Below the pieces are notes generated by a model. The model saw only the letters and a program-made list of their open reading frames with translations, was not told where the DNA came from and searched no databases. Source: an uncultured Deferribacteraceae bacterium (GTDB taxonomy: Bacteria > Chrysiogenota > Deferribacteres > CAMZNJ01). From it: 64,000 bases of DNA. A program made the position numbers and the translations under genes. This document shows, one piece after another, positions 1-64,000 of this stretch (its first letter is position 1; every line of letters begins with the position of its first letter). The stretch covers positions 12,769 through 76,768 of the forward strand of contig CAMZNS010000010.1 in the NCBI GenBank assembly GCA_947313855.1. The letters run 5' to 3'.

Positions 1-10
1 CGAAAATACC

Positions 11-745
11 TCACATGGGAACCAACACAGTGATGATAGCAGATGAAACCTGATTCTTAGTCGCAGCATTAAATCGCAGACTCTGAATCACTTCAGCTAC
101 AATCTGCTCCTGAAGGGGGAACCCCCGCTGTATAAAGTTTGTGCTATAAACTCGCCCCGATCTATCCACCAAAATGTACGCTGTAAGGCTTGCAGCCTTA
201 GGTTCGTCCCCCTGCGTAGACTTGCCGATACCACCAACAATAAGGCGTGCCAATCGCTGAAGGTACGCGGCGATACGACCCTTCCCATAGCTGTCGATAA
301 CACTCTGCACGCTATCAAAGCCAACAAGTAGCCTCGGATTTGTCTGAAACGTAATATCTATGCTACCTCTGTCGAGTAGTAGTGTGCGTGGTAGAATATT
401 CCCCACAATAGGTGGGTATTCGAGTGTTTGTGTTCTGTCTGGTGTGATGCTGACAAGGGTGCTTGGTGCGGTGAAGTTGCTTGTCACCGTGCTGATAGGT
501 GCGTGGTTGTTGCTTGTGAGAGTGTTGTTGGTGCTAATTCTTAGTGGTGGTATCGGTTGTTGTTCGACCCCCATGTTGGGCAAAATCTCTTTGATGCTCG
601 GTTTGGCTATGAGGTATGTGATTGATGCTTCGCCCAAGGGTGTGTCAGGTCTTTTGTTTAGTGGTGCAAGAAGGATAACTAGTGCAACGATGCCCACAAT
701 ATGGAGTATTACTGAGACGGAGTAAGCTAGTCGAATTTTGTTCAT
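11..745 (-). CDS. TonB-family energy transducer (N-terminal membrane anchor; C-terminal domain only weakly TonB-like)
   Basis: Third gene of an exbB-exbD-tonB-type operon. N-terminal TM helix, Pro-containing linker, C-terminal ~90 aa with a weak TonB_C-like pattern. Could also be TolA-like. Confidence 0.5.
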   Translation of the reverse strand: MNKIRLAYSVSVILHIVGIVALVILLAPLNKRPDTPLGEASITYLIAKPSIKEILPNMGVEQQPIPPLRISTNNTLTSNNHAPISTVTSNFTAPSTLVSITPDRTQTLEYPPIVGNILPRTLLLDRGSIDITFQTNPRLLVGFDSVQSVIDSYGKGRIAAYLQRLARLIVGGIGKSTQGDEPKAASLTAYILVDRSGRVYSTNFIQRGFPLQEQIVAEVIQSLRFNAATKNQVSSAIITVLVPM

Positions 746-760
746 TGTGTTCCCATCGCA

Positions 761-1171
761 TTATTGGTTTGAGGCTGTTACAGCCACGGCAAAGTTTGTG
801 AAGCCGGCTCTTCTTGCCAAGGCGATAACGTCCATAACATCGCCATGGTAGGAGCCTTTATCAGCTTGAATGGATATATTTGTGTTTGGGTTGCCGAGGG
901 ATTCTTTGAAGATATCATCTTGGAAAGTAGCGATATTGGTTTCTTCACCGTTAATGAAAATGTGTCCGTCGTTGTTGATTTGCACTCGAATGGTGGTGCT
1001 CATCTCCATTTTTGTTTGCGTGTTCATTTCGGGTAGTCGAATGCTTACGGCGTCGGTGTACACGAGTGTTGAAGAGAAGATGAAGAATATTAGCAGTAGG
1101 AACACAACATCCACCATGGGTGCAGTGTTGATCTCTATACCTTTGCCTTTCTCACGGTCGATAAATTTCAT
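761..1171 (-). CDS. exbD: Biopolymer transport protein ExbD/TolR
   Basis: 136 aa, single N-terminal TM (VDVVFLLLIFFIF) and periplasmic domain typical of ExbD/TolR. Sits between the ExbB-like and TonB-like genes. Confidence 0.75.
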   Translation of the reverse strand: MKFIDREKGKGIEINTAPMVDVVFLLLIFFIFSSTLVYTDAVSIRLPEMNTQTKMEMSTTIRVQINNDGHIFINGEETNIATFQDDIFKESLGNPNTNISIQADKGSYHGDVMDVIALARRAGFTNFAVAVTASNQ

Positions 1172-1200
1172 ACTAGTTTTGCTTGCCTGCCTTGGTTTTG

Positions 1201-2046: not shown

Positions 2047-3326
2047 AGTCGTCGCAAAACCGCACGGTAGAATCCGTCGGAGTTCTCGAGATGGGGCATG
2101 ATGTACCCCTGTCGCTCTAGGGTGAACTCGGTATTCGTACGCAAAAAATCTTGGATGACGGCTGTTGTTTCCGCCGGCTCGAGGGAGCAGACACAGTAGT
2201 GGATGTAGTGTTTGGTCAGGGGGGCAACATGGTGGAGCATGGCAAGCTGTATGGGTTGCAATGTTTGTATGTCGCATGAGTTTTTGATGGCACGAACTTC
2301 GGGATGGCGACGAACGGTGCCGAGGCAGGAGCATGGTGCATCGAGCAGTGTGATGTCGCACAGGGGCACATCTTGTGGTGTTACGTCCATGATATCCTTG
2401 TTGAGGGGGCGAACATTGGACACGTTGTAGCCTCGGAGGTAGCTTTTGAGGGTGTTGAATCGGGAGGGATTAATCTCCACAGCGTGTACGAGTGCGTCGG
2501 GTAGGAGTTTTGCCATGGCGACGGTTTTGCCTCCAGGTGCGGCACAGGCGTCTAGGATGTGCAGGGTGTTGTCGTTGACGTTGGTGTTGTCGTTGACGTT
2601 GGTGTTGTCGTTGGCGATTTTCTCCCCAAGCTCAACGGTTTCCAGTGCGACCATGGCAGAGCCCTTGTCCATAGGTAGTACGCCATGTTTCTGCAGGTCT
2701 GATTCGGTTTTCAGGTTTTGGGGGTGTTCGTCCACGCGTATAATTTTGCCCGTATTGAGGTCTAGTCCCCAGTAGACGGGGGGCGTATTGAGGGTTGTGA
2801 GTAGGGTGTGGAGTTCAGCTCCTGTGCAGTGTGTTTTGAGGTTGTTGATAAAGTTGTTGGGGAAGTCGTCGTAAATAGTGTGTTTTGCGAGGATACTCTC
2901 CTTGGTGCGTGCTATTTCCATGAGTATCCAGTTTACAAACGGTTTTTGGTGTTTGGGGGCAAGTTCAACGGTTGTGCTGACTGCGGCGTAGTCGGGTACG
3001 GAGTCCATGAAGAGTATTTGTGCAATACCCATGGCGATAATACTGCGTAGGGCGGGTGTGGTGGTGGATTTGCTGTGGGTATCGATTAGGGAGTCGATGA
3101 AGGGGAGGTGTCGCATGGTGTTCAGGAATATTTTACGGTAGAATTTGCCGTGTTCCGAGTTGAGGAAGAACTCTTCGCTGTAGGAGCCGTTGTACACTTG
3201 GAGGATGAGGGACGCCACAGTACGGCGTTCATTGGCGTTAGCGTTAGTATTGGCGTTAGCGTTAGCAACTCCTGACGGTGATGACTGAGGGTGTGCCTCG
3301 GTGTGTGTGTGCTTGTGTTCAATCAT
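2043..3326 (-). CDS. rsmB: 16S rRNA (cytosine967-C5)-methyltransferase RsmB/Sun
   Basis: SAM-binding motif LDACAAPGGKT and catalytic DAPCSCLGTVRRHPE. N-terminal NusB-like part. Contains in-frame tandem repeats (NVNDNT x3 at 2566-2616; ANANTNANAN at 3232-3268). Confidence 0.85.
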   Translation of the reverse strand: MIEHKHTHTEAHPQSSPSGVANANANTNANANERRTVASLILQVYNGSYSEEFFLNSEHGKFYRKIFLNTMRHLPFIDSLIDTHSKSTTTPALRSIIAMGIAQILFMDSVPDYAAVSTTVELAPKHQKPFVNWILMEIARTKESILAKHTIYDDFPNNFINNLKTHCTGAELHTLLTTLNTPPVYWGLDLNTGKIIRVDEHPQNLKTESDLQKHGVLPMDKGSAMVALETVELGEKIANDNTNVNDNTNVNDNTLHILDACAAPGGKTVAMAKLLPDALVHAVEINPSRFNTLKSYLRGYNVSNVRPLNKDIMDVTPQDVPLCDITLLDAPCSCLGTVRRHPEVRAIKNSCDIQTLQPIQLAMLHHVAPLTKHYIHYCVCSLEPAETTAVIQDFLRTNTEFTLERQGYIMPHLENSDGFYRAVLRRL

Positions 3327-3363
3327 TGTTCAGCGGGCTCCTTTTTTGGGGCGGGAAGTGGCT

Positions 3364-3418
3364 GTTAGCGTTAGCGTTGGCGTTGGCGTTGGCGTTGGCG
3401 TTGGCGTTGCGTTGGCGT
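3364..3418. repeat. Intergenic hexamer tandem repeat (gcgttg/gcgtta x about 9)
   Basis: gttagcgttagcgttggcgttggcgttggcgttggcgttggcgttgcgttggcg. Confidence 0.9.
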
Positions 3419-6680: not shown

Positions 6681-8066
6681 TTAGTTCCCTTTAATGACGA
6701 CGGGTGTTGTTACGCCACCGATACCTCTGGATACCGATGCTGGTGAGAGTTCTTGTCCGCCGGTGAGTAGAGAGTAGAGGGTTTCGTCGTTATTTGCGGC
6801 AGCAACATCGATTGCGGTGAGTCCGTCACTATTTTGCACAGTTGGTAGTGCACCGAATCGCAGTAGTATTGAGACCCCTTGGTTGTTAGAGTTGCTAACG
6901 GCGTAGTAGAGAGCGGTGTTGCCGAGGTTGTCTTGTGTGTTTGGGTTTGCACCGTTGAGCAGTAGTAGGTACATGGTTTGTATGCTTGACAGTTCGGAGG
7001 AGACGATGAGGGGTGTTTTTCTTTGTCCAACGCGTATGTTTACATCGGCACCGCTTTGGATTAGTCGTCGGACAACGTTGTAGTTGCTGAATGTTATTGC
7101 GATGGTGAGCGGTGTTTGTTGTTCGAAGTTGAGTCTGTTGGGTGATGCTCCTGCAGTGAGTAGTCGTTCGAGTATGTAGATGTTGCTTGTGCCTGATGCT
7201 ATCATGAGAGGTGTGTTGCCGTTGTTGTTGGATATATTTGGGTTGCTGGATTCGTCTAGGAGTAGGTCGACGATGCCGTTGTATCCGCCTTGTGTTGCGT
7301 AGAACAGTTCGTTGTTGCCGGATGTGTCCACAGTGTTTATTTTGGCACCACGGTTGAGTAGTTCTTTTACGATGAAAAGGTTCCCCTGTTTGGCGGCGAT
7401 CATGAGTGCTGTTTGTCCGTCGTTGTTTTTGTGATTGATGTTGATGCCTGAGTTGGCCAAAATAACGGCGATGTCGTTGTATCGGTTCCTTACGGATGCG
7501 ATGAGTGCGTTGTCTCCTGTGACGCTGTCCACTTGGTCTATCTCCACATTGGGGGAGGAGATCATGGATACGACCCTGTCTACTTCGCCACGGGATGAGG
7601 CAACGATGAGGAATATGTCACCGTCGTCGATGGGTGTGCCGGTGGGGTATGCAATGGCGATATCGGAGTTGTAGCTGTAGAAGAACGGGTTAACGTCACT
7701 GCGTCTCATGCGTATGGAGACGTAGTCGGGTTTGACCACTTGAATGCTTCCTGTGAGGTAGTCGGTAAGCATTCCGATGGGTGCGGCGGGGAGTAGTAGT
7801 AGGTTGGCGTAAAACCATGGGCTAATCCCGTCGTAGAATTCGATGGTGGCGTCTTCGTACCCTTGTCGACTGATGGTGATTGAGTCCACAGCGTTTTGGC
7901 TATTGATTTCGAGTAGTGCGGGTGTTTTGTAGTCTTTGCCGTTCACAAAAAAGTTTGAGTTGGGTGGATCGGTGTTGATGGGCACGTATTGTGTTGATGG
8001 GTTCATTAGGGTGGCACATCCGAGTAGTGCGAGTAGTGTTGGCACGAGCAGTAGTGTTAGCAGCAT
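6681..8066 (-). CDS. Ankyrin-repeat lipoprotein
   Basis: Probable start at the internal Met (8066), giving MLLTLLLVPTLLALLGCATL with lipobox LLGC. At least 6 ANK repeats (GNTPLMIA..., TPLTIAI..., KTPLIVSS..., GNTALYYAV...). The ORF extends to 8207 if the upstream Met is used. Confidence 0.75.
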   Translation of the reverse strand: MLLTLLLVPTLLALLGCATLMNPSTQYVPINTDPPNSNFFVNGKDYKTPALLEINSQNAVDSITISRQGYEDATIEFYDGISPWFYANLLLLPAAPIGMLTDYLTGSIQVVKPDYVSIRMRRSDVNPFFYSYNSDIAIAYPTGTPIDDGDIFLIVASSRGEVDRVVSMISSPNVEIDQVDSVTGDNALIASVRNRYNDIAVILANSGININHKNNDGQTALMIAAKQGNLFIVKELLNRGAKINTVDTSGNNELFYATQGGYNGIVDLLLDESSNPNISNNNGNTPLMIASGTSNIYILERLLTAGASPNRLNFEQQTPLTIAITFSNYNVVRRLIQSGADVNIRVGQRKTPLIVSSELSSIQTMYLLLLNGANPNTQDNLGNTALYYAVSNSNNQGVSILLRFGALPTVQNSDGLTAIDVAAANNDETLYSLLTGGQELSPASVSRGIGGVTTPVVIKGN

Positions 8067-8465
8067 ATTGCGTTGTTGTGTGTATTGCGATGGTGCTTTG
8101 CCGACGATAACGCTACTGCTAACGCCACTGCTAACGCTACTGCCGACGATAACGCTGTGGGTAGAGTGTTGGTGGGCGTTAGGGTTGTTTTTCGTAAGTA
8201 TACGCATACCGTTAAGCTCCCTTTGTGGCTGGTAACTTTAGTGTGTTGCACTATGTTTATTGTTTATTCATGTCTCACCTATTTACAATCATACACCAAA
8301 ATAATAGTAGTGGTCAAGTATATTGGCGACTTAATAACGGAATATTCCGTGTACATATTTTATTTGCATGTTGTATAATTGCTATGTGTATTGTAAGATT
8401 GCTCTGACGGAAGTGTTGGAGACAGCAAAACGCAATAAACAACTTTGTTTTGGGAGGTAGTTAGT

Positions 8466-9785
8466 ATGCGAGTAGTAAGCTACACAGAAGGGTGGAGCGG
8501 GCTGAAAACGGTGACGGTAACGGCAATGTTGCTGCTAATGTTAACGATAATGCTGGCTATGGTTACCGCAACAGCAGTCGCATCACCATACTACGTAAAC
8601 TCCCTGCGTGCCCAAGGTATGGGGAACGCCTACACAGGCGTCTCCAACGACAAGTATGCACCATTCTACAACCCTGCAGGGCTGACCTATCTGCGAGAAA
8701 ACAGCATCGTAACCATTCTTGACGGCTCTTATGGCGAAGTGAGCAATCTTGTGCAAGATCTCTACGGCGACTACTCAGATGTCAAGCCGATTATCGACAG
8801 CACCGATATCATTGATCAGGTCGAGGGTGTGTCTGATATTCTGAATACACCGTCAACTTACCGATACTACAAGATAGCTCTGATGCCCCTAGCGTATACC
8901 AAACGTAAGTTTGCCATAGGAACATACGGTGTTGCCAATGCGTACGCCATCTACGGCGGCGACTACATCGAGCTGGAGCTACCCGACAGCATGGATGATA
9001 TCGAGTCTCTATCCGACCTACTCGACCTGCTATCATTCGACCCGGCAAAAGCACCCGTGGGAATAGCTTACACCGAGGCTGGAGCGGGTATCTACACCGC
9101 TCTGTCAAACGACTTTGGCGTAGGGGTAGGACGACTCTCTTACGGCGGTAACATAAGGGTTGGAACAAGATTCACGGGGCTAGGAACAGTAAACCTCGAC
9201 CTAAAACTAAAACAAGTAAGGGCAGAAACAGCGGTAACAGCAGTGTCGGACTTAGGACTAATGTATGCACTAGGTGAAACAGGGCTTCGATACCAAATGG
9301 GTGCCTCCTACAACAATATCTTTATCGCAGAAACAGCAATCAAGCAAAAGAAAGGGGACAAGCCGTTCCCCTACAACAGCTACCTAACACCGACGGTACT
9401 CAATATCGGTGGTGCAATCATCATTCCCACAGGCTCACAACCAACCATCGACGGCATTACCCTTGCCGTGGACCTACCCGACGCACTAGACCAACGGAAC
9501 ATATCTGACTACCGAATAGGCAATCAGTACGCGAATATGTTTAACTATGGTGCTGAAGTGAATTTTGCAGAACGGTTTGCATTACGCACAGGGCTAAACG
9601 AAGGGTATGGCACAGCGGGTGCGGGCATCAGACTGCTAGGACTCACAGTGGACTACGCCTACTACGTGGAAACACCTCCTGCCCCCGTAACCATTGAAAC
9701 AGGTGTGGAGGACGGCACCCTAACACTATTCGCCAATCGTGGAGCGGTACGCAAGCACTCGGTTAATGTTGGGTTCAACTTCTAG
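8466..9785 (+). CDS. FadL/OmpP1/TodX-family outer-membrane hydrophobic-compound transporter
   Basis: Signal peptide. N-terminal hatch region RAQGMGNAYTGVSNDKYAPFYNPAGL with the FadL-family NPA motif. About 440 aa, terminal Phe (VNVGFNF). Strong RBS GGGAGG 8 nt upstream of ATG 8466. The ORF track's 8445 start is a TTG extension. Confidence 0.65.
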   Translation: MRVVSYTEGWSGLKTVTVTAMLLLMLTIMLAMVTATAVASPYYVNSLRAQGMGNAYTGVSNDKYAPFYNPAGLTYLRENSIVTILDGSYGEVSNLVQDLYGDYSDVKPIIDSTDIIDQVEGVSDILNTPSTYRYYKIALMPLAYTKRKFAIGTYGVANAYAIYGGDYIELELPDSMDDIESLSDLLDLLSFDPAKAPVGIAYTEAGAGIYTALSNDFGVGVGRLSYGGNIRVGTRFTGLGTVNLDLKLKQVRAETAVTAVSDLGLMYALGETGLRYQMGASYNNIFIAETAIKQKKGDKPFPYNSYLTPTVLNIGGAIIIPTGSQPTIDGITLAVDLPDALDQRNISDYRIGNQYANMFNYGAEVNFAERFALRTGLNEGYGTAGAGIRLLGLTVDYAYYVETPPAPVTIETGVEDGTLTLFANRGAVRKHSVNVGFNF

Positions 9786-9805
9786 GGGGAGCAACACACA
9801 GCATA

Positions 9806-9889
9806 AACAGACGCACAGACGCACAGACGCACAGACGCACAGACGCACAGACGCACAGACGCACAGACGCACAGACGCACAGACGCACA
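9806..9889. repeat. 8-bp tandem repeat (cagacgca x about 10)
   Basis: Direct reading. Immediately after the stop of the FadL-like gene. Confidence 0.9.
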
Positions 9890-9924
9890 TCCATGGTTTA
9901 CATCCCGTGCAGAAATGGTCGTAG

Positions 9925-13694: not shown

Positions 13695-13707
13695 AGAGAG
13701 TTGCTTT

Positions 13708-54029: not shown

Positions 54030-54080
54030 ATAAACCATCGATTATCGACTATCGACCATCGATTATCGACCATCGACTAA
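54030..54080. repeat. Intergenic tandem repeat (catcgattatcgac / catcgac units)
   Basis: accatcgattatcgactatcgaccatcgattatcgaccatcgacta. Confidence 0.85.
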
Positions 54081-54209
54081 TCAGAAACAGGGGAGGGTGC
54101 CATGTGCCCCTCCCTTTTTTGCGTGTAAAGTACCCCCAACCACTTGAAAGCGTGTCGCCATGTGCCTATATTTTGTTTGGTAATATGCCACGACGGAGGG
54201 GGAATATTT

Positions 54210-54890
54210 ATGAATACTACAATCACACAAATAGGTATGTTGCTCTGTGCAATACTCCTTTTCAGCGTTGCGAGTGTTGCCACTTCGGCACCAGAGGATA
54301 CCGGCACAGCTAGTAATAAGGTTGCGGAAGACACAAATATCGCCCTTGGGTTCGGTGTCCACGCTGACCATGGGTTTTACACCAGCACCAACGATGAATT
54401 ATCCAGCCTAGGACTACTCAGCTCCCTTTACCTAACGGCGGGGTTGAGCAAAATTTACAAAGAGCAACATGAGCTGAGTGCCTACCTAGGCTACCAATTA
54501 ACAGCTCTAGAATCATACTACGGCGACAGTAGGGCTGATGCGAATCGCCCCGATGGTGCAACAGGGTATCTTAACGGTGTGGGCGTTGAAGGGTACTACA
54601 CCTTCCGACCATACAAATACCTAACAGCAGGAGGGTTCGCAACACTTTACGCCTCCACAGGGCAGGATTGTAGCGAAGAGAGTCGCACGTCATGCAGTGT
54701 CGCCAAAGCAAACAAAATCGACATAGGCTTGACACTAGGAACCAACATCGGCGAAAGCTTCAACCCCTACATGTATGTGGGCTACTCGCAAATGAACTTC
54801 CGACTCAAGCCGTACGAATCAACAAGGATGGGCATAGGCATCAAAGGACGTATCACAAATACACGTCTGTTTGGTGCTGACGCAGGATAG
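54210..54890 (+). CDS. Secreted beta-rich paralogue P4
   Basis: Start ATG 54210 (RBS GGAGGGGG). Signal peptide ...SVATSAPED. NPYMYVGYSQMNFRLKPYES motif. Cys-x7-Cys. Confidence 0.6.
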   Translation: MNTTITQIGMLLCAILLFSVASVATSAPEDTGTASNKVAEDTNIALGFGVHADHGFYTSTNDELSSLGLLSSLYLTAGLSKIYKEQHELSAYLGYQLTALESYYGDSRADANRPDGATGYLNGVGVEGYYTFRPYKYLTAGGFATLYASTGQDCSEESRTSCSVAKANKIDIGLTLGTNIGESFNPYMYVGYSQMNFRLKPYESTRMGIGIKGRITNTRLFGADAG

Positions 54891-54986
54891 TGCTACACAT
54901 TTTACCATATAATAATTTGTACCCCCCCTTGAAAATATATTCTCTTTATGTTATGATTATTTCAGCTTTAATGCGGGAGTGTATTT

Positions 54987-55727
54987 ATGGCGAATAATGC
55001 GAGTACGATAAAGGTGGGTCGTAAATATATCGTTCTATCAGGGCTGGTCTTGCTAATATTAAGTACAGTTCTCTTTTCAACCATTGCGGTCGCAGCCCCC
55101 AACATTACTCCCCCTGCAGATAAAAGCGGTGCTGTTAGTGTTCCCTACGACGAAAACCCTACAACAGGTGCTGTTACGAGTCTTTCGTTTAGTGCCTCCT
55201 TAGAGGTTCCCGTGTTTGGTCGCTCTAACTATGCCGACGCCTATGGCTTATTTACTAGATACCCCGCCGTAGGCTTTACAGCTGGGTTCTCCACCCTTGT
55301 GAACCCCCATCACGAATTTCGATACAGTGTCGGTTTTAAGCGTGCTTTCCCCATAACCGTGATAGATAAAATTATTGAATACCCCCAACTCATGACTTTT
55401 ATGTCGTACAACAGTGTGGGGTTAGAGGGTAGTTACTACTATCGACCTGTACGTTGGTTTGGCATAGGACCTACTGCTAAAACTTATGTTGTGTTGGACA
55501 GAAAACCGAAGGGAATTGGTTTGCTCACAGGGACTAGGATCATGCAAGAAACAGAAGAGCTCTCCAATGCGATACCTATCGTTAGCGATATCGGTGGACA
55601 GGTACGGTACTACACCAAGGGTCGTCATTCGTTGTATGCGTCGTTCCTGCTTTCCAATTACTACAAGGGTAGCGATTCGTGGTTCTACACCCATGTTTAT
55701 TCAATAGGCGTAATTGTTGATTTGTAA
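54987..55727 (+). CDS. Secreted beta-rich paralogue P5 (most divergent, no Cys pair)
   Basis: Signal peptide TIAVAAPN. Similar size and Gly/Tyr-rich composition. Confidence 0.5.
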   Translation: MANNASTIKVGRKYIVLSGLVLLILSTVLFSTIAVAAPNITPPADKSGAVSVPYDENPTTGAVTSLSFSASLEVPVFGRSNYADAYGLFTRYPAVGFTAGFSTLVNPHHEFRYSVGFKRAFPITVIDKIIEYPQLMTFMSYNSVGLEGSYYYRPVRWFGIGPTAKTYVVLDRKPKGIGLLTGTRIMQETEELSNAIPIVSDIGGQVRYYTKGRHSLYASFLLSNYYKGSDSWFYTHVYSIGVIVDL

Positions 55728-55729
55728 CC

Positions 55730-56020
55730 GACGGAGGTGCTGACGGTCGTGTTGGCGGTGCTGACGGTCGTGTTGGCGGTGGCGACGGTGGTGTTGGCGG
55801 TGGCGCTGGTCGTGTCCGCGGTGCTTTCGGTCGGGGTGGCGGTGGTTTCGGTCGTGTTGGCGGTGGCGACGGTCGTGTTGGCGGTGCTGACGGTCGTGTT
55901 GGCGGTGGCGATGGTCGTGTTGGCGGTGGCGATGGTCGTGTTGGCGGTGGCGATGGTCGTGTTGGCGGTGGCGATGGTCGTGTTGGCGGTGGCGATGGCG
56001 GTGCAGTTCGGTGGCGATGG
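55730..56020. repeat. 21-bp tandem repeat x about 13 (ggtgctgacggtcgtgttggc with gcg/gat variants)
   Basis: Direct reading. Both strands are open through it (ORF-track artefacts 55697-56101 and 55737-56024). Confidence 0.9.
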
Positions 56021-56084
56021 CTGACTTTTGGGCGACGGGGCGACGGCGTTCCTGCTTGGCGGTGACAACTCGACTGCTAATCCC

Positions 56085-56663
56085 CTATGGCAGTTTCTCA
56101 ATCAACATGGTGTGTTGCGGGCGTAACCAGCCCTTGTTGTCAATGGTTTTCTCGAAGTGGAACTCTTTGCGACACATGGGTGTGTTGTCGTATGAGTCGT
56201 AGAAGTGGTAGCAGCACTCCTGCACGTATTTAAGGATTGTCCAGTGTTCAAACCTGCTTTTATACTGCAGTAGCACAACATGGTTGTCGCTTTTGGCAAT
56301 ATGTTTCTCCATAATCTCAAACAGATCCTCTTTCTCCCCTTTAAAAGTGTCTAGGTATGTGATTTTCATGTTTGTTTGCTGTTCGTCGGGCAGTTTGTAT
56401 CTACTGTAGTGTTCCACCAAGAACTTCATCTGCTCGTAGGTTATGCCATCGATAAACAGCTCCTCCATCCATCCTTCGCGTGTGTAAAACTGTTTTAGCA
56501 TGTCTAGTAGTAGTATGTTTGAGTCTTTGAATTTGATACCGTAAAGCAGTCGCACAAGGTTGAGGACGGTGTAAACGCCACACAACATGTTGTCACCTTG
56601 GGAGAGTGGATTGACCTTGTGGCTTTGGATATTGGCGTCGTCTAGTGTAAATATACTGCTCAC
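56085..56663 (-). CDS. Standalone papain-fold (peptidase C39-like) cysteine peptidase domain protein
   Basis: 192 aa, no signal peptide. QGDNMLCGVYTVLNLV (Q-x5-CG: oxyanion Gln plus catalytic Cys) and DNHVVLLQY (His motif), like the double-glycine-leader peptidase domain of ABC exporters but without the ABC transporter part. Confidence 0.4.
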   Translation of the reverse strand: MSSIFTLDDANIQSHKVNPLSQGDNMLCGVYTVLNLVRLLYGIKFKDSNILLLDMLKQFYTREGWMEELFIDGITYEQMKFLVEHYSRYKLPDEQQTNMKITYLDTFKGEKEDLFEIMEKHIAKSDNHVVLLQYKSRFEHWTILKYVQECCYHFYDSYDNTPMCRKEFHFEKTIDNKGWLRPQHTMLIEKLP

Positions 56664-56894
56664 TCTGTTCCTCGTTCTTCTGTTGTCACAATTTTATTTT
56701 GGTGCAAAACTTTCCCAATTGTATCATACTATTCCCATAGTATCCACAGATTTATTGTGTAACAAAGCTTGTGTTTAGTTGGTAGATTTTGTTTGTCAAA
56801 GGGTATATAATTGTGTAGTATTTAGTATTATGAATATGTTGCGTAGTGGGTAGTCATTGTTCACTAATCATTTTTGCAACACTAGAGGTTTGCT

Positions 56895-57740
56895 ATGTTA
56901 TTCCAAGATATTATCATGAATCTGCAACGCTACTGGGCGGATAGGGGGTGCATCGTTACATCTGGCTTGGATATTGAAGTTGGTGCTGGTACGTTTAACC
57001 CCACAACATTCCTCCGATCATTGGGTGGCAAGCCGTTTAGTGCTGCCTATGTTGAGCCTAGCCGACGCCCAACTGATGGACGTTACGGGCAAAACCCCAA
57101 CAGACTCCAACAACACCATCAGTTCCAAGTTTTTCTCAAACCGTCACCCGATGATATTGTTGACATCTACCTAGGATCCTTGGAAATGCTAGGTATCAGG
57201 AGTTCTGAGCACGATATCCGCTTTGTGGAAGACAACTGGGAATCCCCCACCTTAGGTGCGTGGGGTTTAGGTTGGGAGGTCTGGCTGGACGGCATGGAGA
57301 TTACACAGTTTACCTACTTTCAACAGGTCGGCGGTATCGCCATGGAGATGGTTCCGGGTGAGATAACATACGGCTTGGAGCGAATAGCCATGCACCTGCA
57401 AGGGGTGGACAGCGTGTACGACCTCAAATGGAACGATAACATATCGTACGGCGATGTGTTTTTGCAAAACGAAGTTCAGCTGTCGAAATACAACTTCGAA
57501 CATGCCGACGTTGCAATGCTCTTCGGGTTGTTCGACACCTACCAACACGAATGCCATGCCCTTGTAGAGGCGAGCCTTCCCATACCGGCTTACGAATACT
57601 GTCTCAAGGCGAATCATGTGTTTAACTTGCTGGATGCACGTTCGGCTATTTCGGTGAACGAGCGGGCTGCGTATATCGGTCGCATTCGCAAGATGTCTGC
57701 TGGTTGTGCCTCTTTGTACCTTGAGGAGCTTGCGTCGTAA
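56895..57740 (+). CDS. glyQ: Glycyl-tRNA synthetase alpha subunit
   Basis: Near-colinear identity with E. coli GlyQ ([63 protein letters not shown]). Confidence 0.95.
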
Positions 57741-57791
57741 TGTTCCGGCTATTTAGCTGTATTGGATTAATTAAGGGTTGCGGAGAATATT

Positions 57792-58835
57792 ATGATAGCT
57801 GAGAGTAAAGCGTTTAGGTTTTTGGGTTTGAGCAAGTTTTTTGTAGTGTCACTTCTTGCAACAAATCTTGGGTTGTTTTATGTTTTCATCAAATATATTG
57901 CCCCGAGTTATAATATATTAGTTAATGTTTACATGCAGTTTTTTGCTTTGGGTATTATTGCTGCTTACGTTATGGTATTGGTAAGCGTTGTTCGCCCCTT
58001 GTATTTCCCTTTTTCTCAGGGGATGATGGCGTTGTTTTTTACGTTGACCATGATGCTGTTTGCACTACTCATGGGTGCACAGTTCTGTCTTGTTGACGGG
58101 CTCAATTTCATGGCAAAGATTTCAGGTGGCAGGTTGCCTTATTTGGCACCGATTGTACTTCTGTTTATTTCGGTTGTTGTGCTTGCTGTTGCTTATGAGG
58201 TGTCTGAACATCGTGGTTGGTTGCGTTTGAAGTCTGCGATAACGATAATTGCGTTTGTGCCGTTTATTTACATTGCGTCTAAGAGTTTGTACCTTTATTA
58301 TTCCTCCCTTTACTACTCCGAGCTATGGGTTTACATCCCCTACTATGTTGGTGTTGGCGTTGTGAGTCTTCTGTCTTGGCTTAGTTTTGCTTTGTTATTT
58401 GCGTCGCCTCGTTTTGCATTGGGTCGTTTTCAGTCTAAGGTGCAGAGCTCCACACCTGTGCGGCTGCTTTACATATTGCTAGGGTTGTACTCCCTTGTTT
58501 TAGCGTTGTTTCAGTTTACGCCATTTAGTGTCATATTCCTTTTGGCGGCGATATTTTTTGTGTACATCTACTTGCGTCCTATGGGTTTGGGTTCCGAGTA
58601 TTCCAGTAAGGATGCCGAGAGTCGTTCAAGAGAGTTTTGGTCAGCGTTGTTGCGTCTTTATGTAGTAAACTCTGCTACCTTGACGCTTTACATCGCCCTT
58701 AACATGTTTGTATTCTATTCCGTATTTGAATACACGTTGCCTCTGTTTGTCGAGAATATGATTATCATGGGGATTCTGATGATAATCGTAGTACCGCTTT
58801 TCCCCTTAGCGTTGCGAATGTTCCGTAGTTTGTAG
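57792..58835 (+). CDS. Hypothetical polytopic membrane protein (10 or more TM)
   Basis: Hydrophobic throughout. No recognisable motif. Occupies the position where glyS would normally follow glyQ. Confidence 0.5.
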   Translation: MIAESKAFRFLGLSKFFVVSLLATNLGLFYVFIKYIAPSYNILVNVYMQFFALGIIAAYVMVLVSVVRPLYFPFSQGMMALFFTLTMMLFALLMGAQFCLVDGLNFMAKISGGRLPYLAPIVLLFISVVVLAVAYEVSEHRGWLRLKSAITIIAFVPFIYIASKSLYLYYSSLYYSELWVYIPYYVGVGVVSLLSWLSFALLFASPRFALGRFQSKVQSSTPVRLLYILLGLYSLVLALFQFTPFSVIFLLAAIFFVYIYLRPMGLGSEYSSKDAESRSREFWSALLRLYVVNSATLTLYIALNMFVFYSVFEYTLPLFVENMIIMGILMIIVVPLFPLALRMFRSL

Positions 58836-58853
58836 GATTGTTAGGTTTCCCTG

Positions 58854-59507
58854 ATGGCAACAAAAACAACAGCAGTAAGGATGACCAAACCGAGGCGTGT
58901 GTCCATGGTGTTGCCGTATTTGGAGGCGAGGTACGGCGATGTTGAGTGTGCACTTCTCCACGATTCACCGTTTCAGTTGCTGATTGCGACCGTGTTGTCG
59001 GCACAGTGTCGTGATGAGCGAGTTAATATTGTTGCGCGTGAGTTGTTTGCACAGTATGGCACAGCGTGGGAGCTGGCAAACGCCGATCTGAGCCATGTTG
59101 CTGGCATCCTAAAATCTTTGGGACTGTACAAAACCAAGTCCAAAAATATCATCGCCCTGTCGACTATTCTTTGCGAAAAACACAACGGCACACCACCCAA
59201 CAACATGACCGACCTTGTGGCTCTCCCCGGAGTTGGTCGCAAAACAGCTAACGTTCTCCTTGGCGAGTGTTTCGAGGTTGAAGGCGTTGTTGTTGATACC
59301 CACGTAAATCGTATCACCAACAGGCTAGGGCTCACAACATCCAACAACCCCGTTGTCATCGAAAAAGAGCTCATGAAACTGCTCCCAAAAAACGAGTGGC
59401 GGAACTTTACCCATCGAACCATATATTTTGGTCGTGAAGTATGCATCGCACGCAAACCGAATTGCCACGACTGCGGTCTGCAGTCCATCTGCACCTACAA
59501 GCCTTAA
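58854..59507 (+). CDS. nth: Endonuclease III
   Basis: HhH-GPD (LVALPGVGRKTANVLLGE), catalytic Lys/Asp context, C-terminal 4Fe-4S cluster C-x6-C-x2-C-x5-C. Confidence 0.9.
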   Translation: MATKTTAVRMTKPRRVSMVLPYLEARYGDVECALLHDSPFQLLIATVLSAQCRDERVNIVARELFAQYGTAWELANADLSHVAGILKSLGLYKTKSKNIIALSTILCEKHNGTPPNNMTDLVALPGVGRKTANVLLGECFEVEGVVVDTHVNRITNRLGLTTSNNPVVIEKELMKLLPKNEWRNFTHRTIYFGREVCIARKPNCHDCGLQSICTYKP

Positions 59508-59590
59508 TAATAGTGTTGTAGTAGTAATGCTACTGTGCTACACTGGTGCAATATGTTGGTGTTGGGGTAAACTACCACGGAGGCATAGGG

Positions 59591-61048
59591 ATGGCAATGA
59601 AGTGGAGCAGGCTCTTGGAAGGCAAAACATTGGTCTCCAAACAGGACAACAAATCTGAAAATAACCCCATACGTACAATTTTTGAGCGTGACTACGACCG
59701 ACTCATCTACTCCACAGCATTCCGACGACTAGGACGAAAAACACAGGTGCACCCCCTATCCGAAAACGACCATGTACATAACCGACTATCACACACTCTG
59801 GAAACAACAACCGTAGGACGATCTCTAGGACGTATCCTTGTACAGAAATTACGCGAAGAGGACAACAGCAAGAAACTAGACACTTACGACAACAACGCCT
59901 TGGATAATATCCCAAACATTATGGTTGCGGCATGCCTTGCCCACGATATGGGTAACCCACCATTCGGACACAGCGGCGAAGACATACTCAGCAAACACAT
60001 GTTTCACGGCAAAAAAAGATACCCCGATCTATTCGAAAAACTGTCTGATGACGAAAATATCGATATCACTCGCTTTGAAGGGAACGCACAAACATTCCGA
60101 ATACTCACAAAACTAGAAATATACGGGAAAGAGGGTGGACTAAAACTAAGCATGCCAACACTCGCAACAACCATCAAATACCCGTGGGGACTACCTGATG
60201 CTCCCGAAGGCAAAAATAAATTCAACTACTACCAATCTGAAAAAACAGAATTCGAAACCCTAGTGGAAAAACTAGGACTCAAAACTGAAGCAGGGAAGGC
60301 GTGTCGCCACCCCCTATCATACCTACTCGAAGCCGCAGACGATATCTGCTACCTAATCATGGACTTCGAAGACGCACTAGACATGAACATTATCAGTGAA
60401 GCCAACTTCTACAAAGAGCTCGAACCACTATGCAAAAAACTAGGACTAGAAGGGGAGTGTGGGGACAAAAAAAATAGCAATAGCAACGTCAACAACGTCA
60501 ACAACGTCAACAACGTCAACAACGAAGCTAATGGCGATGACGAAAAAAAGATTTCACCTGGGAAGGTCAGGGGACAACTAATCAACAAACTAACACACAG
60601 AGCTGTGGACATATTCATGGCAAACTACGACAACATTATGGCAGGTAGGTTCAAAGGGGCGTTGCTTAACTGGGCGGGGAACAACAATATCCCATCAATC
60701 AAAGAGGAACTGGATAGTATTCGTTGGTTCTTCAGCGAAAACGTCTACGACACCGGTCGAAATATGAGTATTGATATCGGTGCATACCAAGTGCTGGGCG
60801 ATCTGGTGGACTACTCACTCAAACGACTCGACAACCATGTGCAAGCCCTGAAAAGTGAGGCGAATACTATCCCCGATTTTGACAGAAAACTGACGAAAGT
60901 TATGGGGATAGAAAGTATTCAGAATACCATCGAAAAATATGACGATAGCCACTACGAAGCCCTGCGTATGGTGCTGGACTACATCTCCGGAATGACAGAC
61001 AACTTCTCGGTGAATATGCGAAAAACAGTTCGAGGGCACAACCTATGA
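59591..61048 (+). CDS. dgt: dGTP triphosphohydrolase-like HD-domain protein
   Basis: FERDYDRLIYSTAFRRLGRKTQV, HSLE-like RLSHTLETT, CLAHDMGNPPFGHSGE. In-frame NVNNVNNVNNVNN (60484-60524). Start 59591 (GGAGG RBS). The ORF extends to 59546. Confidence 0.8.
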   Translation: MAMKWSRLLEGKTLVSKQDNKSENNPIRTIFERDYDRLIYSTAFRRLGRKTQVHPLSENDHVHNRLSHTLETTTVGRSLGRILVQKLREEDNSKKLDTYDNNALDNIPNIMVAACLAHDMGNPPFGHSGEDILSKHMFHGKKRYPDLFEKLSDDENIDITRFEGNAQTFRILTKLEIYGKEGGLKLSMPTLATTIKYPWGLPDAPEGKNKFNYYQSEKTEFETLVEKLGLKTEAGKACRHPLSYLLEAADDICYLIMDFEDALDMNIISEANFYKELEPLCKKLGLEGECGDKKNSNSNVNNVNNVNNVNNEANGDDEKKISPGKVRGQLINKLTHRAVDIFMANYDNIMAGRFKGALLNWAGNNNIPSIKEELDSIRWFFSENVYDTGRNMSIDIGAYQVLGDLVDYSLKRLDNHVQALKSEANTIPDFDRKLTKVMGIESIQNTIEKYDDSHYEALRMVLDYISGMTDNFSVNMRKTVRGHNL

Positions 61049-61479
61049 AAATAACCAAAGCCTCCGACTATGCCATCAAAGCACTGGCATACATGTCGCA
61101 AGACCCGAAAGCAAAATACCTAAGACACAGGCTCGCTAAAGATTGCGATATCCCCGACTACTTTCTCGCACGAATATTGCAAGGACTCGCCAAGGCAGGA
61201 TTACTGCAGTCCGAAAGGGGGGCACACGGCGGCTTCTTCCTGCTAAGATCCCCCGGTGAGATAACACTCTTAGACGTAATAGTTGCCGTTGATGGGAACA
61301 TTAGCCTCCTAGACTGTACCGGTGCTGATGGGTGCAAAAGCATGGGCAACTGTGTGGCGGCATCTGCTTGGATGGACATACAGAGTGGATTCGAAGCCTT
61401 GCTCAGCTCCAAAACCGTGGAGTCTATTGCGGAAGGGTTCTGCTTCAACATCAGTAACGACGATAACACCGACAACTGA
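61045..61479 (+). CDS. Rrf2-family transcriptional regulator, probably Fe-S cluster-binding
   Basis: N-terminal wHTH MKITKASDYAIKALAYM. C-terminal C-x6-C-x5-C (CTGADGCKSMGNC), as in IscR/NsrR. Confidence 0.75.
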   Translation: MKITKASDYAIKALAYMSQDPKAKYLRHRLAKDCDIPDYFLARILQGLAKAGLLQSERGAHGGFFLLRSPGEITLLDVIVAVDGNISLLDCTGADGCKSMGNCVAASAWMDIQSGFEALLSSKTVESIAEGFCFNISNDDNTDN

Positions 61480-61486
61480 TAGGGGG

Positions 61487-61672
61487 GTGTGCCCCGAGCA
61501 CGCTCACACACGCCCCGAGCACGCTCACACACGCCCGAGCACGCTCACACACGCCCGAGCACGCTCACACACGCCCGAGCACGCTCACACACGCCCGAGC
61601 ACGCTCACACGCCCCGAGCACGCTCACACGCCCGAGCACGCTCACACACGCCCGAGCACGCTCACACGCCCC
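61487..61672. repeat. About 19-bp tandem repeat x about 9 (cccgagcacgctcacacacg with length variants)
   Basis: Direct reading between rrf2 (+) and murD (-) 3' ends. Confidence 0.9.
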
Positions 61673-63149
61673 TGAGGGCTTCAGCAACATACTCCCTGAA
61701 CCGATTGCCACGATCTTCGAACGATTGAAACTCATCAAAGCTCGGCGAACCGGGGCTCATCAACACATAAATAACACTGTCGTCAGGTTCGGTGTTAGAG
61801 CCGTCATCGTTTCGCTCCTTCCCGTCATTGTCAGCATTTCGCAATACTGTTTGTGCTTCGTCAAGGGCATGTTGTATGCTTTTCTGCACCCCTTCACGCA
61901 GGGTTTTGCATGGTGTTGAGGTAATATGTTTTTCCGGCGTTACTAGCCTATTGATGCGGTATGCTTCTTCGCCAAAGGAGTAGATTGCGATTGCATGTTT
62001 GTTGATGGCATCTAGTGCGGTTTCGTAGTTTGTGCGTCTGTGTTGTCCGCCAATGAGCAGTATGATGTTTGGGTTGTCGTTAGTATTTGTGAGACTTGCG
62101 AGGGCGGTGACAACAGATTGTGCGTTTGTGCTTTTGGAGTCGTTGACGAATATAATTTTGCAGCCGTTAGTTTTGTTATTGTTGTGTGTGATATGGTGGG
62201 TGTGGCATGGCTCCATTCTGTGTGGTAGTGGCGGGATATTTTCGACAATGTGCGTAATGGAGTTGGATTTTAGTGTTTTGAGGTAGTTGGGTACAACTGT
62301 GCTGATGGTGAATAGGGCGTAGTGTAGGTTTATGAGGTTGTGGTTCCCCATGAAGTTGAATCGGTTGTTGAGGAAGTGTAGTCCATTGACGTAGGTGTAG
62401 TTGTTTCCGAAGTAGACTTTGTGTTTTGCTGGTATAACTTTGTCGAGGTGTTTTTGGATGGTGTTATTGGTGTCCACGTTGCTTGTGGGGTGTTGTTGTA
62501 GTAGTGTTTTCACCGTGTTGACGTATTCGTGGTTGATTATCAACGTACCATTCTCTTTGAGGTGTCCCACGCCCATGGCTTTGGAGAGGTAGTACTGTTC
62601 GGCAGTGGTGTAGCGTTCTTGGTGTGTATGGGCGAGGTTGAGGATGATGAATGCGTCTAGGAGTAGCTCTTTCATGATATCGATTTGGAAGCTGGAGAGT
62701 TCGAGTACGAGGATTTCGGCGTTGGGGTTGTCGTAGAGGGTGTCCCCTAGTGTGTTGCCGATGTTGCCACATGCGTGTACGTTGGCACCGAGTTGTTTGA
62801 GGAGGCTTGTGAGCATTGTTGCGGTGGTGGTTTTGCCGCTGCTCCCTGTGATGGCGATGATTAGTGGTTTGTGGCTTTTTTGTTTGTTTAGGATGTACCT
62901 TTGGCACAGGTCGAGTTCGTTTGTGATGTGTGGCAGTGTTGTGTCGGGGTAGTTGGTCATTGTTTTCGGGTTTAGCCCTGGTGAGACGACTGTTAGGGTG
63001 TTGCCATGGTCTTGGTTTCGGTAGCTGTTGAGTGGTTTTGCGTTTGGGGTATTGTCGTCGTAGATGTGAAACTGAGTGTAGCCGTTTTGTGATAGGATTC
63101 GTTTGGCCGTGTTGCCACTTTTGCCCATGCCTAGAATAATTGCTTTCAT
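61662..63149 (-). CDS. murD: UDP-N-acetylmuramoylalanine--D-glutamate ligase
   Basis: Mur ligase P-loop AITGSSGKTTTATML. N-terminal Rossmann KAIILGMGKSG. Start at 63149. The ORF extends to 63215. Confidence 0.85.
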   Translation of the reverse strand: MKAIILGMGKSGNTAKRILSQNGYTQFHIYDDNTPNAKPLNSYRNQDHGNTLTVVSPGLNPKTMTNYPDTTLPHITNELDLCQRYILNKQKSHKPLIIAITGSSGKTTTATMLTSLLKQLGANVHACGNIGNTLGDTLYDNPNAEILVLELSSFQIDIMKELLLDAFIILNLAHTHQERYTTAEQYYLSKAMGVGHLKENGTLIINHEYVNTVKTLLQQHPTSNVDTNNTIQKHLDKVIPAKHKVYFGNNYTYVNGLHFLNNRFNFMGNHNLINLHYALFTISTVVPNYLKTLKSNSITHIVENIPPLPHRMEPCHTHHITHNNNKTNGCKIIFVNDSKSTNAQSVVTALASLTNTNDNPNIILLIGGQHRRTNYETALDAINKHAIAIYSFGEEAYRINRLVTPEKHITSTPCKTLREGVQKSIQHALDEAQTVLRNADNDGKERNDDGSNTEPDDSVIYVLMSPGSPSFDEFQSFEDRGNRFREYVAEALRGV

Positions 63150-63157
63150 GTTAAATA

Positions 63158-64000
63158 TTACCTTATGCGAAGTAGTGAAACGGCGATGAGTGCAAGGATG
63201 AATGCCACTATCCAAAACCTAATGACGATTTTTTGTTCGGCAATGCCGGAGAGTTCGAAGTGGTGGTGTAGGGGAGACATTTTGAAGATACGTTTCCCTT
63301 TGGTTGCTTTGAAGTAGCCCACCTGCATTATTACGGATAGTGTTTCGGCAATAAAAACGCCAGCGATGAGTATGAGGATAAGTTCTTGTTTGATCATAAT
63401 CGCCATGACGGCCATGGAGCCACCGAGGGATAAGGATCCTGTGTCGCCCATGAAAAGTTGTGCGGGGTAGGCGTTGTACCAGAGAAATCCGAGACCGGCA
63501 CCAACAATTGCAGTGGCAAATATTGCAAGCTCAGATGTTCCGGGGATGGGGGTAACGTAGAGGTAGTTGGCGATATTACTGCTACCAGCGATGTAGGCGT
63601 ACAGCCCGAGTGTTGCGAATGCTATGACCGATGGCATAATTGCTAGTCCGTCAAGACCGTCGGTGAGGTTGACCGAGTTGCTGCTGCCCACAATAATAAA
63701 TATGGCAAAGAGTATGTAAAGGTATGAGATGCTGATTTCAATATTTTTGAAAATGGGGAGGTAGATGGTGAAAAGGGTGGCGGTATCTTGAACCAAACTA
63801 ATGAGAACGATGACGACGAGGGAGACAGCTATTTGAAGGAGGAACTTTATTCGTGCCGAAACCCCTTCAGGGTTGCCCTTGACCTTGTTGTGGTCGTCGT
63901 ACCACCCTATTGCGGCAAAACTCAAAAAAGATACGAGAATAATGGCGATGTAGGGGTTGCGTAGGTCGGACAAAAGGAGGGTGGTAACAACTGCAGGAAC
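63158..64000 (-). CDS. mraY: Phospho-N-acetylmuramoyl-pentapeptide transferase (5' end beyond the window)
   Basis: DDHNK (DDxxK) and C-terminal MraY motifs (HHHFEL). The N-terminus continues past position 64000. The ORF-track Met at 63973 is internal. Confidence 0.85.
   Translation of the reverse strand, partial: VPAVVTTLLLSDLRNPYIAIILVSFLSFAAIGWYDDHNKVKGNPEGVSARIKFLLQIAVSLVVIVLISLVQDTATLFTIYLPIFKNIEISISYLYILFAIFIIVGSSNSVNLTDGLDGLAIMPSVIAFATLGLYAYIAGSSNIANYLYVTPIPGTSELAIFATAIVGAGLGFLWYNAYPAQLFMGDTGSLSLGGSMAVMAIMIKQELILILIAGVFIAETLSVIMQVGYFKATKGKRIFKMSPLHHHFELSGIAEQKIVIRFWIVAFILALIAVSLLRIR

Follow-up and report, generated by a model that had tools for sequence, protein, structure and literature searches.

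Bacterial variable number tandem repeat (VNTR) or minisatellite loci, of which the VNTRs of Wolbachia used for multiple-locus VNTR analysis typing are reportedly an example, are modelled as products of slipped-strand mispairing. Other intergenic repeats are dispersed, with the mycobacterial interspersed repetitive units (MIRU) forming a few related sequence families spread over about 40 loci, while repetitive extragenic palindromic and bacterial interspersed mosaic elements (REP/BIME) and miniature inverted-repeat transposable elements (MITEs) are palindromic, with one family dispersed in many copies. The 64,000-nucleotide stretch analysed here (the window; assembly GCA_947313855.1, contig CAMZNS010000010.1, positions 12,769 to 76,768) is rich in tandem-repeat arrays, which are best read as a genome-wide tandem-repeat proliferation, a known kind of phenomenon that was unreported for the source genus, Candidatus Rimicarispirillum, in the literature searched. 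The closest precedent is Candidatus Portiera aleyrodidarum of the whitefly Bemisia tabaci, in which intergenic tandem repeats that are absent from the sister lineage have proliferated (Sloan and Moran 2013, PMC3673631) and from which dnaQ, mutL, ruvC, ssb and other genes have been lost (PMC3673631).

The valyl-tRNA synthetase (ValRS) of the window is 93% identical to that of its closest genome, 'uncultured Deferribacteraceae bacterium M_SnakePit_MAG_00002', a metagenome-assembled genome (MAG) from the Snake Pit Rimicaris midgut, and all remaining ValRS matches, those of a metagenome scan included, are at most 55% identical. That MAG represents Candidatus Rimicarispirillum, a filamentous midgut symbiont of Rimicaris exoculata (PMC9636832) with genomes of 1.25-1.36 Mb and 47% GC and with two species at ~87% average nucleotide identity (PMC9636832), whose cells elongate without division and whose relatives have 29-42% GC against the 47% of the genus (PMC9636832). 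On its sequence we place the window in this midgut symbiont of Rimicaris vent shrimp (Deferribacterota), which has a reduced genome. The literature searched on Rimicarispirillum and Mucispirillum makes no mention of tandem repeats or of DNA repair. A Pfam scan of the 40 largest open reading frames (ORFs) returned an ordinary bacterial housekeeping set, including RsmB, FapA, an ankyrin protein, ccm genes, QueH, ValRS and an NFACT/RqcH-like protein together with TrmB, PFK, MutS2, YkuD, YbeY and PhoH.

As in Portiera, we are dealing with a host-restricted bacterium of reduced genome with a lineage-specific burst of repeats that is concentrated in intergenic DNA, and in both cases recent indels between strains fall in repeat contexts. 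The Portiera repeats have likewise been read as the result of an altered mutational process and not as functional elements (PMC3673631). However that genome has 26% GC, a sharp spike of 7-bp units, enlarged intergenic regions (69% coding) and many rearrangements (PMC3673631), whereas Rimicarispirillum has 47% GC, GC-rich units of 6-87 bp without a preferred size, a window that is ~88% coding, gene order that is conserved over the regions examined and housekeeping genes with many in-frame arrays. Repeat density has risen in this lineage without the expanded intergenic regions and rearrangements that go with such a rise in Portiera.

Syntenic loci were compared from three more Rimicarispirillum MAGs, two from each. 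Loci L085 and L091 (GCA_947313805.1) are 96.4% identical to the window, while L083 and L092 (GCA_947313825.1) and L084 and L090 (GCA_947313785.1) belong to the other species (species B) and are ~88% identical to it; L083 and L084 are 98.9% identical to each other, differing by 170 substitutions over 15.2 kb. The window and these six loci share a collinear gene order over window positions ~6,300-27,300 and 44,800-64,000. Two outgroup loci of 29% GC, L093 and L086, were found by means of QueH (57-60% identity). The genome fraction covered is about 5%, and all compared assemblies are short-read MAGs, in which the lengths of arrays above ~150 bp are uncertain and differences in short arrays are robust. 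Logan contigs of Rimicarispirillum come from a single run, are broken at the arrays and are of little use for copy number.

Array density in the window and its relatives

Tandem Repeats Finder (TRF) returned 113 rows for the window at a score of at least 30; here counts of array anatomy use a score of at least 40 and density counts a score of at least 50. At the latter threshold 41 merged arrays cover 3,305 bp, which corresponds to 0.64 arrays per kb and 5.2% of window bases, in comparison with 0-1 arrays in each of 20 first-order Markov simulations of the window (about 0.1 per 64 kb). As controls we utilized 163 valS-flanking loci from diverse genomes and metagenomes (2.58 Mb), including the metagenome loci from the ValRS scan, among which there are no close relatives. 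These contain 0.051 arrays per kb covering 0.32% of bases, and for the control loci of at least 10 kb (n=125) the median is 0 and the 95th percentile 0.22 arrays per kb. An earlier note on this DNA, made by reading the sequence, had held the density to be far beyond that of typical bacteria, and at about thirteen times the repeat density of ordinary bacteria this is borne out. Put differently, ordinary genomes have a handful to some dozens of VNTRs per megabase, whereas here there is roughly one per 1.5 kb, and arrays take up 5% of all bases and one third of non-coding sequence. The excess is limited to units of at least 6 bp, with perfect repeats of 1-5 bp units at control level.

The same note had proposed a lineage-specific process. 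The six loci from the three further Rimicarispirillum MAGs have 0.45-0.68 arrays per kb, in contrast with one array in 20.6 kb (0.05 per kb) in the outgroup L093, only weak AT-rich matches in L086 and the 0.05 per kb of the controls. As the density is high in four Rimicarispirillum MAGs and not in the two outgroup loci, raised array density is a trait of the genus or of its family, in line with that proposal. In addition a contig of a third, more distant relative (L089, SRR23346877, QueH 83% identical) ends in a 7-mer array at its positions 1117-1146, at the 3' end of queH, which suggests that the trait extends past the two named species.

The presence of so many arrays in short-read MAGs raises the question as to whether metagenome assembly, through collapse, expansion or chimeric joins, has produced them. 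Both Logan and MAG contigs often terminate at arrays, arrays longer than a read are not reliably sized, and inside the largest array the stretch 49140-49240 decays into long C-runs while keeping the 20-nt period, much like low-quality poly-G tails. To judge by its letters this stretch is probably a read or assembly artefact stemming from the poly-G read tails of two-colour chemistry, and the copy number of the 48856-49291 array is therefore unreliable. As a general explanation, however, artefact is very improbable because the sites recur in four independent MAG assemblies and some of the sequences in Logan contigs (among them the independent contig L001, 100% identical over 30274-30315). Many arrays are also shorter than a read, and the preservation of frame inside genes and the pattern of locations are biological signatures. 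All 19 arrays that the earlier note had listed were recovered, at or near the positions it gave, by TRF and by reading; absent from its list were the arrays inside genes, of which there are about 29.

In common with bacterial VNTRs the arrays consist of head-to-tail copies of locus-specific units, vary in copy number between strains, end in a partial terminal copy and preserve frame in genes, where most units are multiples of three. Their units are not dispersed and, an 87-mer and a 16-mer apart, are of local origin; in these two most of the unit is absent from the sister genomes. The lack of interspersed unique spacers noted earlier holds throughout on TRF and reading, with the single exception of 17130-17262, where the copies stand 36 nt apart.

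Comparison of the window with itself gave no off-diagonal match and no unit at a second locus, so the arrays are not mobile or dispersed elements. An origin from a mobile element or MITE is ruled out by the lack of dispersed copies, as is any dispersed repeat family of the REP/BIME, MIRU or MITE type since no family is found at many loci. The arrays resemble MIRU in their tandem units of tens of bp, their occurrence in co-directional operon gaps near or overlapping stop and start codons and their strain-variable copy number; unlike MIRU no unit recurs at a second locus of the window. With REP/BIME and other dispersed intergenic repeats they share a preference for gene 3' ends and convergent gaps, from which they differ (as from MITEs) in being direct, non-dispersed and mostly non-palindromic repeats.

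The likeness to CRISPR lies in regularly repeated short sequences of the kind that repeat finders pick up. CRISPR is ruled out here by the absence of unique spacers and of a leader and by units as short as 6-20 nt, and the Pfam scan of the 40 largest window ORFs found no cas family. Two Rimicarispirillum MAGs have been described as carrying cas-less 'CRISPRs' of 30 and 19 spacers at contig ends (PMC9636832), and because of the repeat landscape of the genus these may be higher-order tandem arrays.

Position of the arrays relative to genes

On a curated gene map the non-coding DNA of the window amounts to ~7.5 kb and holds 26-27 arrays, which fill ~34% of its bases. The earlier statement that almost every gap carries an array was too strong, as arrays are present in 19 of 39 gaps of at least 30 bp and in 16 of 24 gaps of at least 100 bp. 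Their placement depends on gap type, with arrays in all six convergent gaps in comparison with one of the seven divergent gaps (Fisher p = 0.005), or two of seven once one gene start is moved to 38581 (p about 0.016, computed by hand), and in 12 of 26 co-directional gaps. Within co-directional gaps the arrays sit close behind the upstream gene, at a median of 8 nt from its stop against a median of 50 nt to the next start (Wilcoxon p = 0.03), and the arrays at 11568, 16110, 16399 and 37413 straddle stop codons. In L083 a stop codon itself lies inside a 14-mer, CATTAGCATGTAAA. The intergenic and stop-codon arrays are as follows.

1931-2039: degenerate G-rich 11-mer array and (GTCGGCA)x3.7, 3 nt past the stop of the minus-strand RsmB-like gene
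3359-3418: (TGGCGT)x10 in a co-directional gap
9807-9889: (ACAGACGC)x10.4, 100% pure, in a convergent gap; absent in L083 of the sister species
9960-9994: (TTGCATGTTTG)x3.2, in the same convergent gap as 9807-9889
11134-11168: minor 13-mer x2.7 in a divergent gap
11568-11642: 7-mer/19-mer array overlapping the ccmE stop codon; a different 30-mer array stands at this site in the sister species
14392-14543: (GCACGGCTGGTAATTG)x9.5, a 16-mer filling 152 bp between ccmA and ccmB, 6 nt past the stop; a single GTACGGCT (8-nt partial copy) at this site in the sister species
16110-16155: 12-mer x3.8 across the C-terminal end and stop codon of a 48-aa CcmD-like ORF; x4.7 in L085
16168-16355: 87-mer x2.2, 100% pure, in a convergent gap; only a 14-nt terminal partial copy in L085 and species B
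16399-16448: 12-mer x4.2 spanning the queH stop; 36-mer x3.5 (127 bp) in L085
17130-17262: 48-nt segment present twice with period 84, each copy with (GTTACG)3; two copies in L085, each with (GTTACG)1, and one copy in species B
20267-20450: 30-mer x6.2 with a higher-order period of 89, 4 nt past the stop of a FecR-like gene; x2.9 in L085, a different 30-mer in species B
21294-21590: 55/66-mer x4.8, 6 nt past a stop, with valS starting 44 nt further on; present once in L085 and species B
30274-30315: 15-mer x2.8, 5 nt past a stop
32901-32924: weak 12-mer x2.0, 10 nt past the mutS2 stop
37413-37450: 15-mer x2.5 in a convergent gap, across the stop codon at 37425
38413-38487: hexamer arrays and the palindromic 10-mer (ACAATTGTGC)x4.1 with a 10-bp period, in a divergent gap upstream of the probable true start at 38581
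45973-46158: 12-mer x2.9 and 33-mer x2.1 (100% pure); species B (L090) has the 33-mer once
48856-49291: (CCGTCCACGCCCACGCACAA) x about 22, a 20-nt unit with higher-order periods of 136 and 156; the largest array
49946-50190: 12-mer x1.9 and 14/26-mer x6.5, placed after two tRNA-Met genes, with the stop of alanine dehydrogenase 15 nt away
52439-52462: 9-mer x2.7 in a 52-bp co-directional gap
54026-54079: 7/14/21-mer array in a co-directional gap
55730-55995: (GACGGTCGTGTTGGCGGTGGC)x12.1, a 21-mer, in a convergent gap 3 nt past a stop
61493-61667: (CCCGAGCACGCTCACACACG)x8.9, a 20-nt unit filling a convergent gap; related but restructured as a 46-mer x2.2 in L091 and a 132-mer x1.9 in L090

Some of the units had been read differently before. 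The array at 14392-14543 is real but made of a 16-mer x9.5 and not a 17-mer, that at 30274-30315 is a 15-mer x2.8 where an 18-mer had been given, and the units at 48856-49291 and 61493-61667 are of 20 nt, not 21 and 19. At 17130-17262 there are indeed two 48-nt copies, although separated by 36 nt (hence the period of 84), and the array given as 1930-2046 is present with a poor 1931-2004 part (68% matches).

Arrays that abut stop codons and occupy every convergent gap could be functional 3' elements, acting as Rho-loading or termination zones, as insulators against read-through and convergent collisions or as stabilisers of 3' untranslated regions, and such elements would be important if, as it seems, the genome has no ordinary hairpin terminators. 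Intrinsic-terminator-like hairpins are at chance level, with 20 found and 19.2 expected in 8000-27999 and 19 against 20.6 in 44001-64000, which is in itself uninformative on the arrays; one clear hairpin stands at ~16365-16393, between ccmD and queH. Some array positions are common to both species (55730, 61493 and a site upstream of queH), and the arrays have a distinct GC-rich and strand-asymmetric composition. However units, copy number and even presence differ between genomes that are 96-99% identical, which speaks equally against the sequence-specific spacer function that the earlier note had considered. Moreover, 14 of the 26 co-directional gaps do without an array, the 152-bp array at 14392 lies within the ccmA-ccmB operon, and the same process visibly yields in-frame arrays within genes. 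A rut-like orientation of the stop-proximal arrays, with a C-rich sense strand, was rejected, since in only about 10 of 17 cases does the upstream gene have the C-rich strand as its sense strand (about 10 for, 7 against), and array strand follows no rule with respect to the plus strand or GC skew either (11 against 7). We regard a function at gene 3' ends as improbable.

Arrays within genes are restricted in another way, in that 24 of ~29 have a period divisible by three (p = 6e-8), the five exceptions being weak two-copy matches or lying at doubtful start codons. They encode short peptide repeats in housekeeping proteins, among them the following.

2565-2616, minus strand: 18-mer x2.7 encoding NDNTNV repeats, in frame in the RsmB-like gene
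24486-24571, plus strand: hexamer array encoding (Ala-Asn/Ala-Gly)n, in frame in the NFACT/RqcH-like gene
31332-31369, plus strand: 12-mer x3.2 encoding RATGGATGGATGG, in frame in mutS2; two copies fewer in species B
32526-32553, plus strand: 12-mer x2.3, in frame in mutS2; one copy fewer in species B
40040-40098, minus strand: 9/18-mer array encoding SNT/VNT repeats, in frame in ybeY
42299-42351, minus strand: 9-mer x5.9, 100% pure, encoding (NRD)6, in frame in a gene of the poly(A) polymerase/CCA-adding enzyme family
43376-43410, minus strand: 9-mer x3.9 encoding (DGA)4, in frame in a tyrosine recombinase gene
60484-60524, plus strand: 9-mer x4.6 encoding (NVN)n, in frame in an HD-domain phosphohydrolase gene

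The (AN/AG)n tract of the RqcH-like protein is different in all four genomes and is a homogenised (AG)13 in L084. The NFACT/RqcH-like gene (24432-26294) and the gene for MutS2 with its Smr domain (30344-32890) lie 4 kb apart and both carry hypervariable in-frame repeats; in Bacillus RqcH and MutS2 act in the rescue of collided ribosomes. The peptide repeats in MutS2, RqcH-like, YbeY and RsmB proteins provide a measure of how far bacterial core proteins tolerate low-complexity insertions.

These in-gene arrays bear on the contingency function raised in the earlier note, in which hypermutable repeats would switch genes or tune promoters so that the host interaction varies. In its favour are the host association of the bacterium, the strain-variable copy number and one palindromic 10-mer array in a divergent promoter gap (38413-38487). 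The gene annotated from 38410 has a better start at ATG 38581, preceded by GGGAGAAG, which leaves this array among the few in divergent promoter gaps, and its palindromic units could form a protein-binding site. Contingency loci are nevertheless a most unlikely account of the arrays as a whole, given that 24 of 29 in-gene arrays keep frame and their hosts are proteins such as RsmB, MutS2, YbeY and the CCA/poly(A) polymerase family enzyme, that intergenic arrays avoid promoter gaps and that units of 1-5 bp, the drivers of classical phase variation, are at control level. With the possible exception of 38413-38487 no frame-shifting or promoter-spacing repeat was found in or upstream of a surface or virulence gene, and for the most part length changes in the arrays of the window leave both the frame and the promoter distance of genes intact.

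Turnover, composition and likely origin of the arrays

Between genomes the arrays are the principal site of length change. In the L083-L084 pair nine of ten indels of at least 6 bp fall within five array regions, the same concentration of indels in arrays is seen between the window and L085, and alignments of the window with L002 and L083 break exactly at arrays. The 21-mer at 55730 is present x12.1 in the window, x8.7 in L091 and x2.5 in L090, with a 66-mer x2.0 in L092 (about 6 copies). Upstream of queH the 15-mer GCACGGCAACACCTT is repeated x10.7 in L083 and x4.6 in L084, is packed into a 63-nt higher-order repeat in L085 and is cleanly deleted in the window. The 33-mer, the 55/66-mer, the 48-mer and the mutS2 12-mers have single-copy counterparts in sister genomes. 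The change of (GTTACG) at 17130-17262, where both copies have three in the window and both have one in L085 (reverse complement ~1270-1390), is concerted and therefore points to gene conversion between the copies. Hypervariability between strains, which the earlier note had expected, is thus evident as copy-number differences at the same loci, and it fits a generating process of the slippage or recombination type.

We consider it likely, at a probability of roughly two in three (0.68), that the arrays reflect a high lineage-wide rate of slippage or unequal exchange filtered by selection and that they are mostly neutral VNTR-like loci, not sequence-specific functional elements. Local sequence would be duplicated in tandem, in units of ~6-90 bp, at an unusually high rate in Rimicarispirillum, with slipped misalignment between short direct repeats during replication giving the first copies and unequal exchange and gene conversion between copies bringing about later change. 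Such events would occur everywhere, and selection would remove any that disrupt a reading frame or a 5' regulatory region. Within genes the only survivors would be arrays that keep frame and lie in tolerant loops and tails, and promoter and 5' regions would be purged of arrays, while at or just past stop codons and between convergent genes any period would be tolerated and arrays could grow to hundreds of bp.

We infer slipped misalignment with later exchange or conversion from the local origin of the units, the terminal partial copies, the collapse to these copies, the higher-order periods and the concerted change, features which are classical signatures of slippage between short direct repeats in tandem-repeat instability. 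At 14392 and 16168, where the terminal partial copies measure 8 nt and 14 nt, sister genomes retain exactly that copy.

What would raise the rate can be narrowed to some extent. One candidate is that replication or repair functions which normally keep longer units from misaligning have been lost or altered, and another is that genome copies recombine frequently in the long and possibly polyploid filaments. The earlier note had pointed to mutS and mutL. MutS-type mismatch repair (MutS/MutL) acts on loops of only about 1-4 nt, and since only units of at least 6 bp are in excess these genes are not the key test; more promising are single-strand exonucleases, DnaQ, helicases or the recombination regime, and the MutS2 of the window is not a mismatch-repair MutS. 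DNA repair and recombination are not mentioned in the main text of PMC9636832, and mutS, mutL, recA and uvrD are absent from the text of its supplements.

The composition of the arrays is less readily explained. The earlier claim that the units are unrelated holds in that there is no dispersed sequence family, although they have in common a high GC content and a GCAC/CACG/TGCA bias. GC is 60% in arrays, 40% in unique intergenic DNA and 47.5% in coding DNA, and arrays in sister genomes are equally GC-rich (55-68% across four genomes, compared with 47-48% for the loci overall). GCAC or GTGC occurs in 19 of 34 units where 6.8 are expected (z = 5.2) and GCACA in 11 where 2 are expected, with GCAC, CACG and TGCA all enriched, and composition is strand-asymmetric. 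This points to a sequence preference of the generating process or to selection on composition.

These features would be accommodated by a recombination regime in place of plain slippage, in which exchange among the many genome copies of a filament, with GC-biased gene conversion or a GCAC signal, would create, homogenise and enrich GC-rich arrays and raise genomic GC over that of relatives. The GC-richness of the arrays in all four genomes and the enriched tetramers agree with this, as do the concerted change at 17130-17262, the homogenised (AG)13 of L084, the GC content of the genus (47% against 29-42% in relatives and 29% in L086) and elongation without division (PMC9636832). However polyploidy and biased conversion are conjectural, substitutions polarised as AT-to-GC against the reverse show no excess (25 against 26, and 122 against 142), and array GC is only weakly and non-significantly correlated with array length (rho = 0.33, p = 0.10). 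We therefore hold this to be a doubtful alternative.

Also unlikely, if somewhat less so, is a dedicated or strongly altered regime of DNA transactions that makes GC-rich, GCAC-containing minisatellites mostly at gene ends, possibly by recombination at GCAC-type signals among genome copies in non-dividing filaments or by template switching at replication-transcription conflicts. If true this would be a bacterial counterpart of the recombination-driven minisatellite biology of eukaryotes and might account for a reduced genome being GC-richer than its relatives.

Several observations weigh against slippage filtered by selection as set out above. Were random local sequence amplified, GC-rich and GCAC-rich units would not be expected. 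Among intergenic arrays 15 of 26 also have a period divisible by three (p = 0.012), an excess for which the stop-straddling arrays account only in part. Most of the 87-mer and of the 16-mer unit is absent from all sister genomes available, the unique part of the 87-mer having no match in related loci, metagenome contigs or viral contigs, and these two arrays may stem from insertion of new sequence. Copy numbers of arrays longer than a read are uncertain in short-read MAG assemblies, and the transition to transversion counts, which served as a proxy for a repair defect, are uninformative (46:6 in the pair at 98.9% identity, 193:98 in that at 96.4%).

With Portiera, from whose AT-rich repeats it differs greatly in composition, Rimicarispirillum would provide a second genome-wide tandem-repeat proliferation in a host-restricted bacterium, and the two together could help to find the replication and repair functions that stabilise units of 6-90 bp. 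On the practical side the arrays account for the fragmentation of short-read assemblies of these symbionts, and as highly discriminating strain markers they could help to follow how the symbionts pass between Rimicaris hosts and from one vent site to another. There is a risk that repeat finders mislabel them, and gene callers put spurious small ORFs on them.

Gene calls and other features of the window

Small and probably spurious ORFs are called on arrays in the sister MAGs, for example at 1165-1383 and 9712-9969 of L090. In the window the longest-ORF starts lie too far upstream at 16418-17104, 21635-24418 and 20540-21058, with database gene calls giving QueH as 214 aa (ATG at 17062), ValRS as 912 aa and TsaE as 156 aa. 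Searches by exact protein sequence with TsaE and with P0001 had no hit. Directly after ccmC the ORF at 15991-16137 (plus strand) encodes 48 aa with a single transmembrane helix and a C-terminus, '...EDSDNGSDND*', that is itself encoded by the 12-mer array; it is probably ccmD.

The largest gap holds two tandem tRNA-Met (CAT) genes at 49644-49820, preceded by a strong promoter-like site at 49603-49631, and an Rfam search returned the two tRNAs and nothing else. GGCC is almost absent from the window (observed/expected ~0.1), all 36 of its sites being in the 56 kb of coding DNA and none between genes, and GATC is depleted (observed/expected ~0.45), which looks like restriction-site avoidance. Finally, five consecutive ORFs of 231-275 aa at 51595-55727 (plus strand) have no Pfam match and are 23-30% identical between neighbours, so they form a tandem paralogue family of weakly related members.

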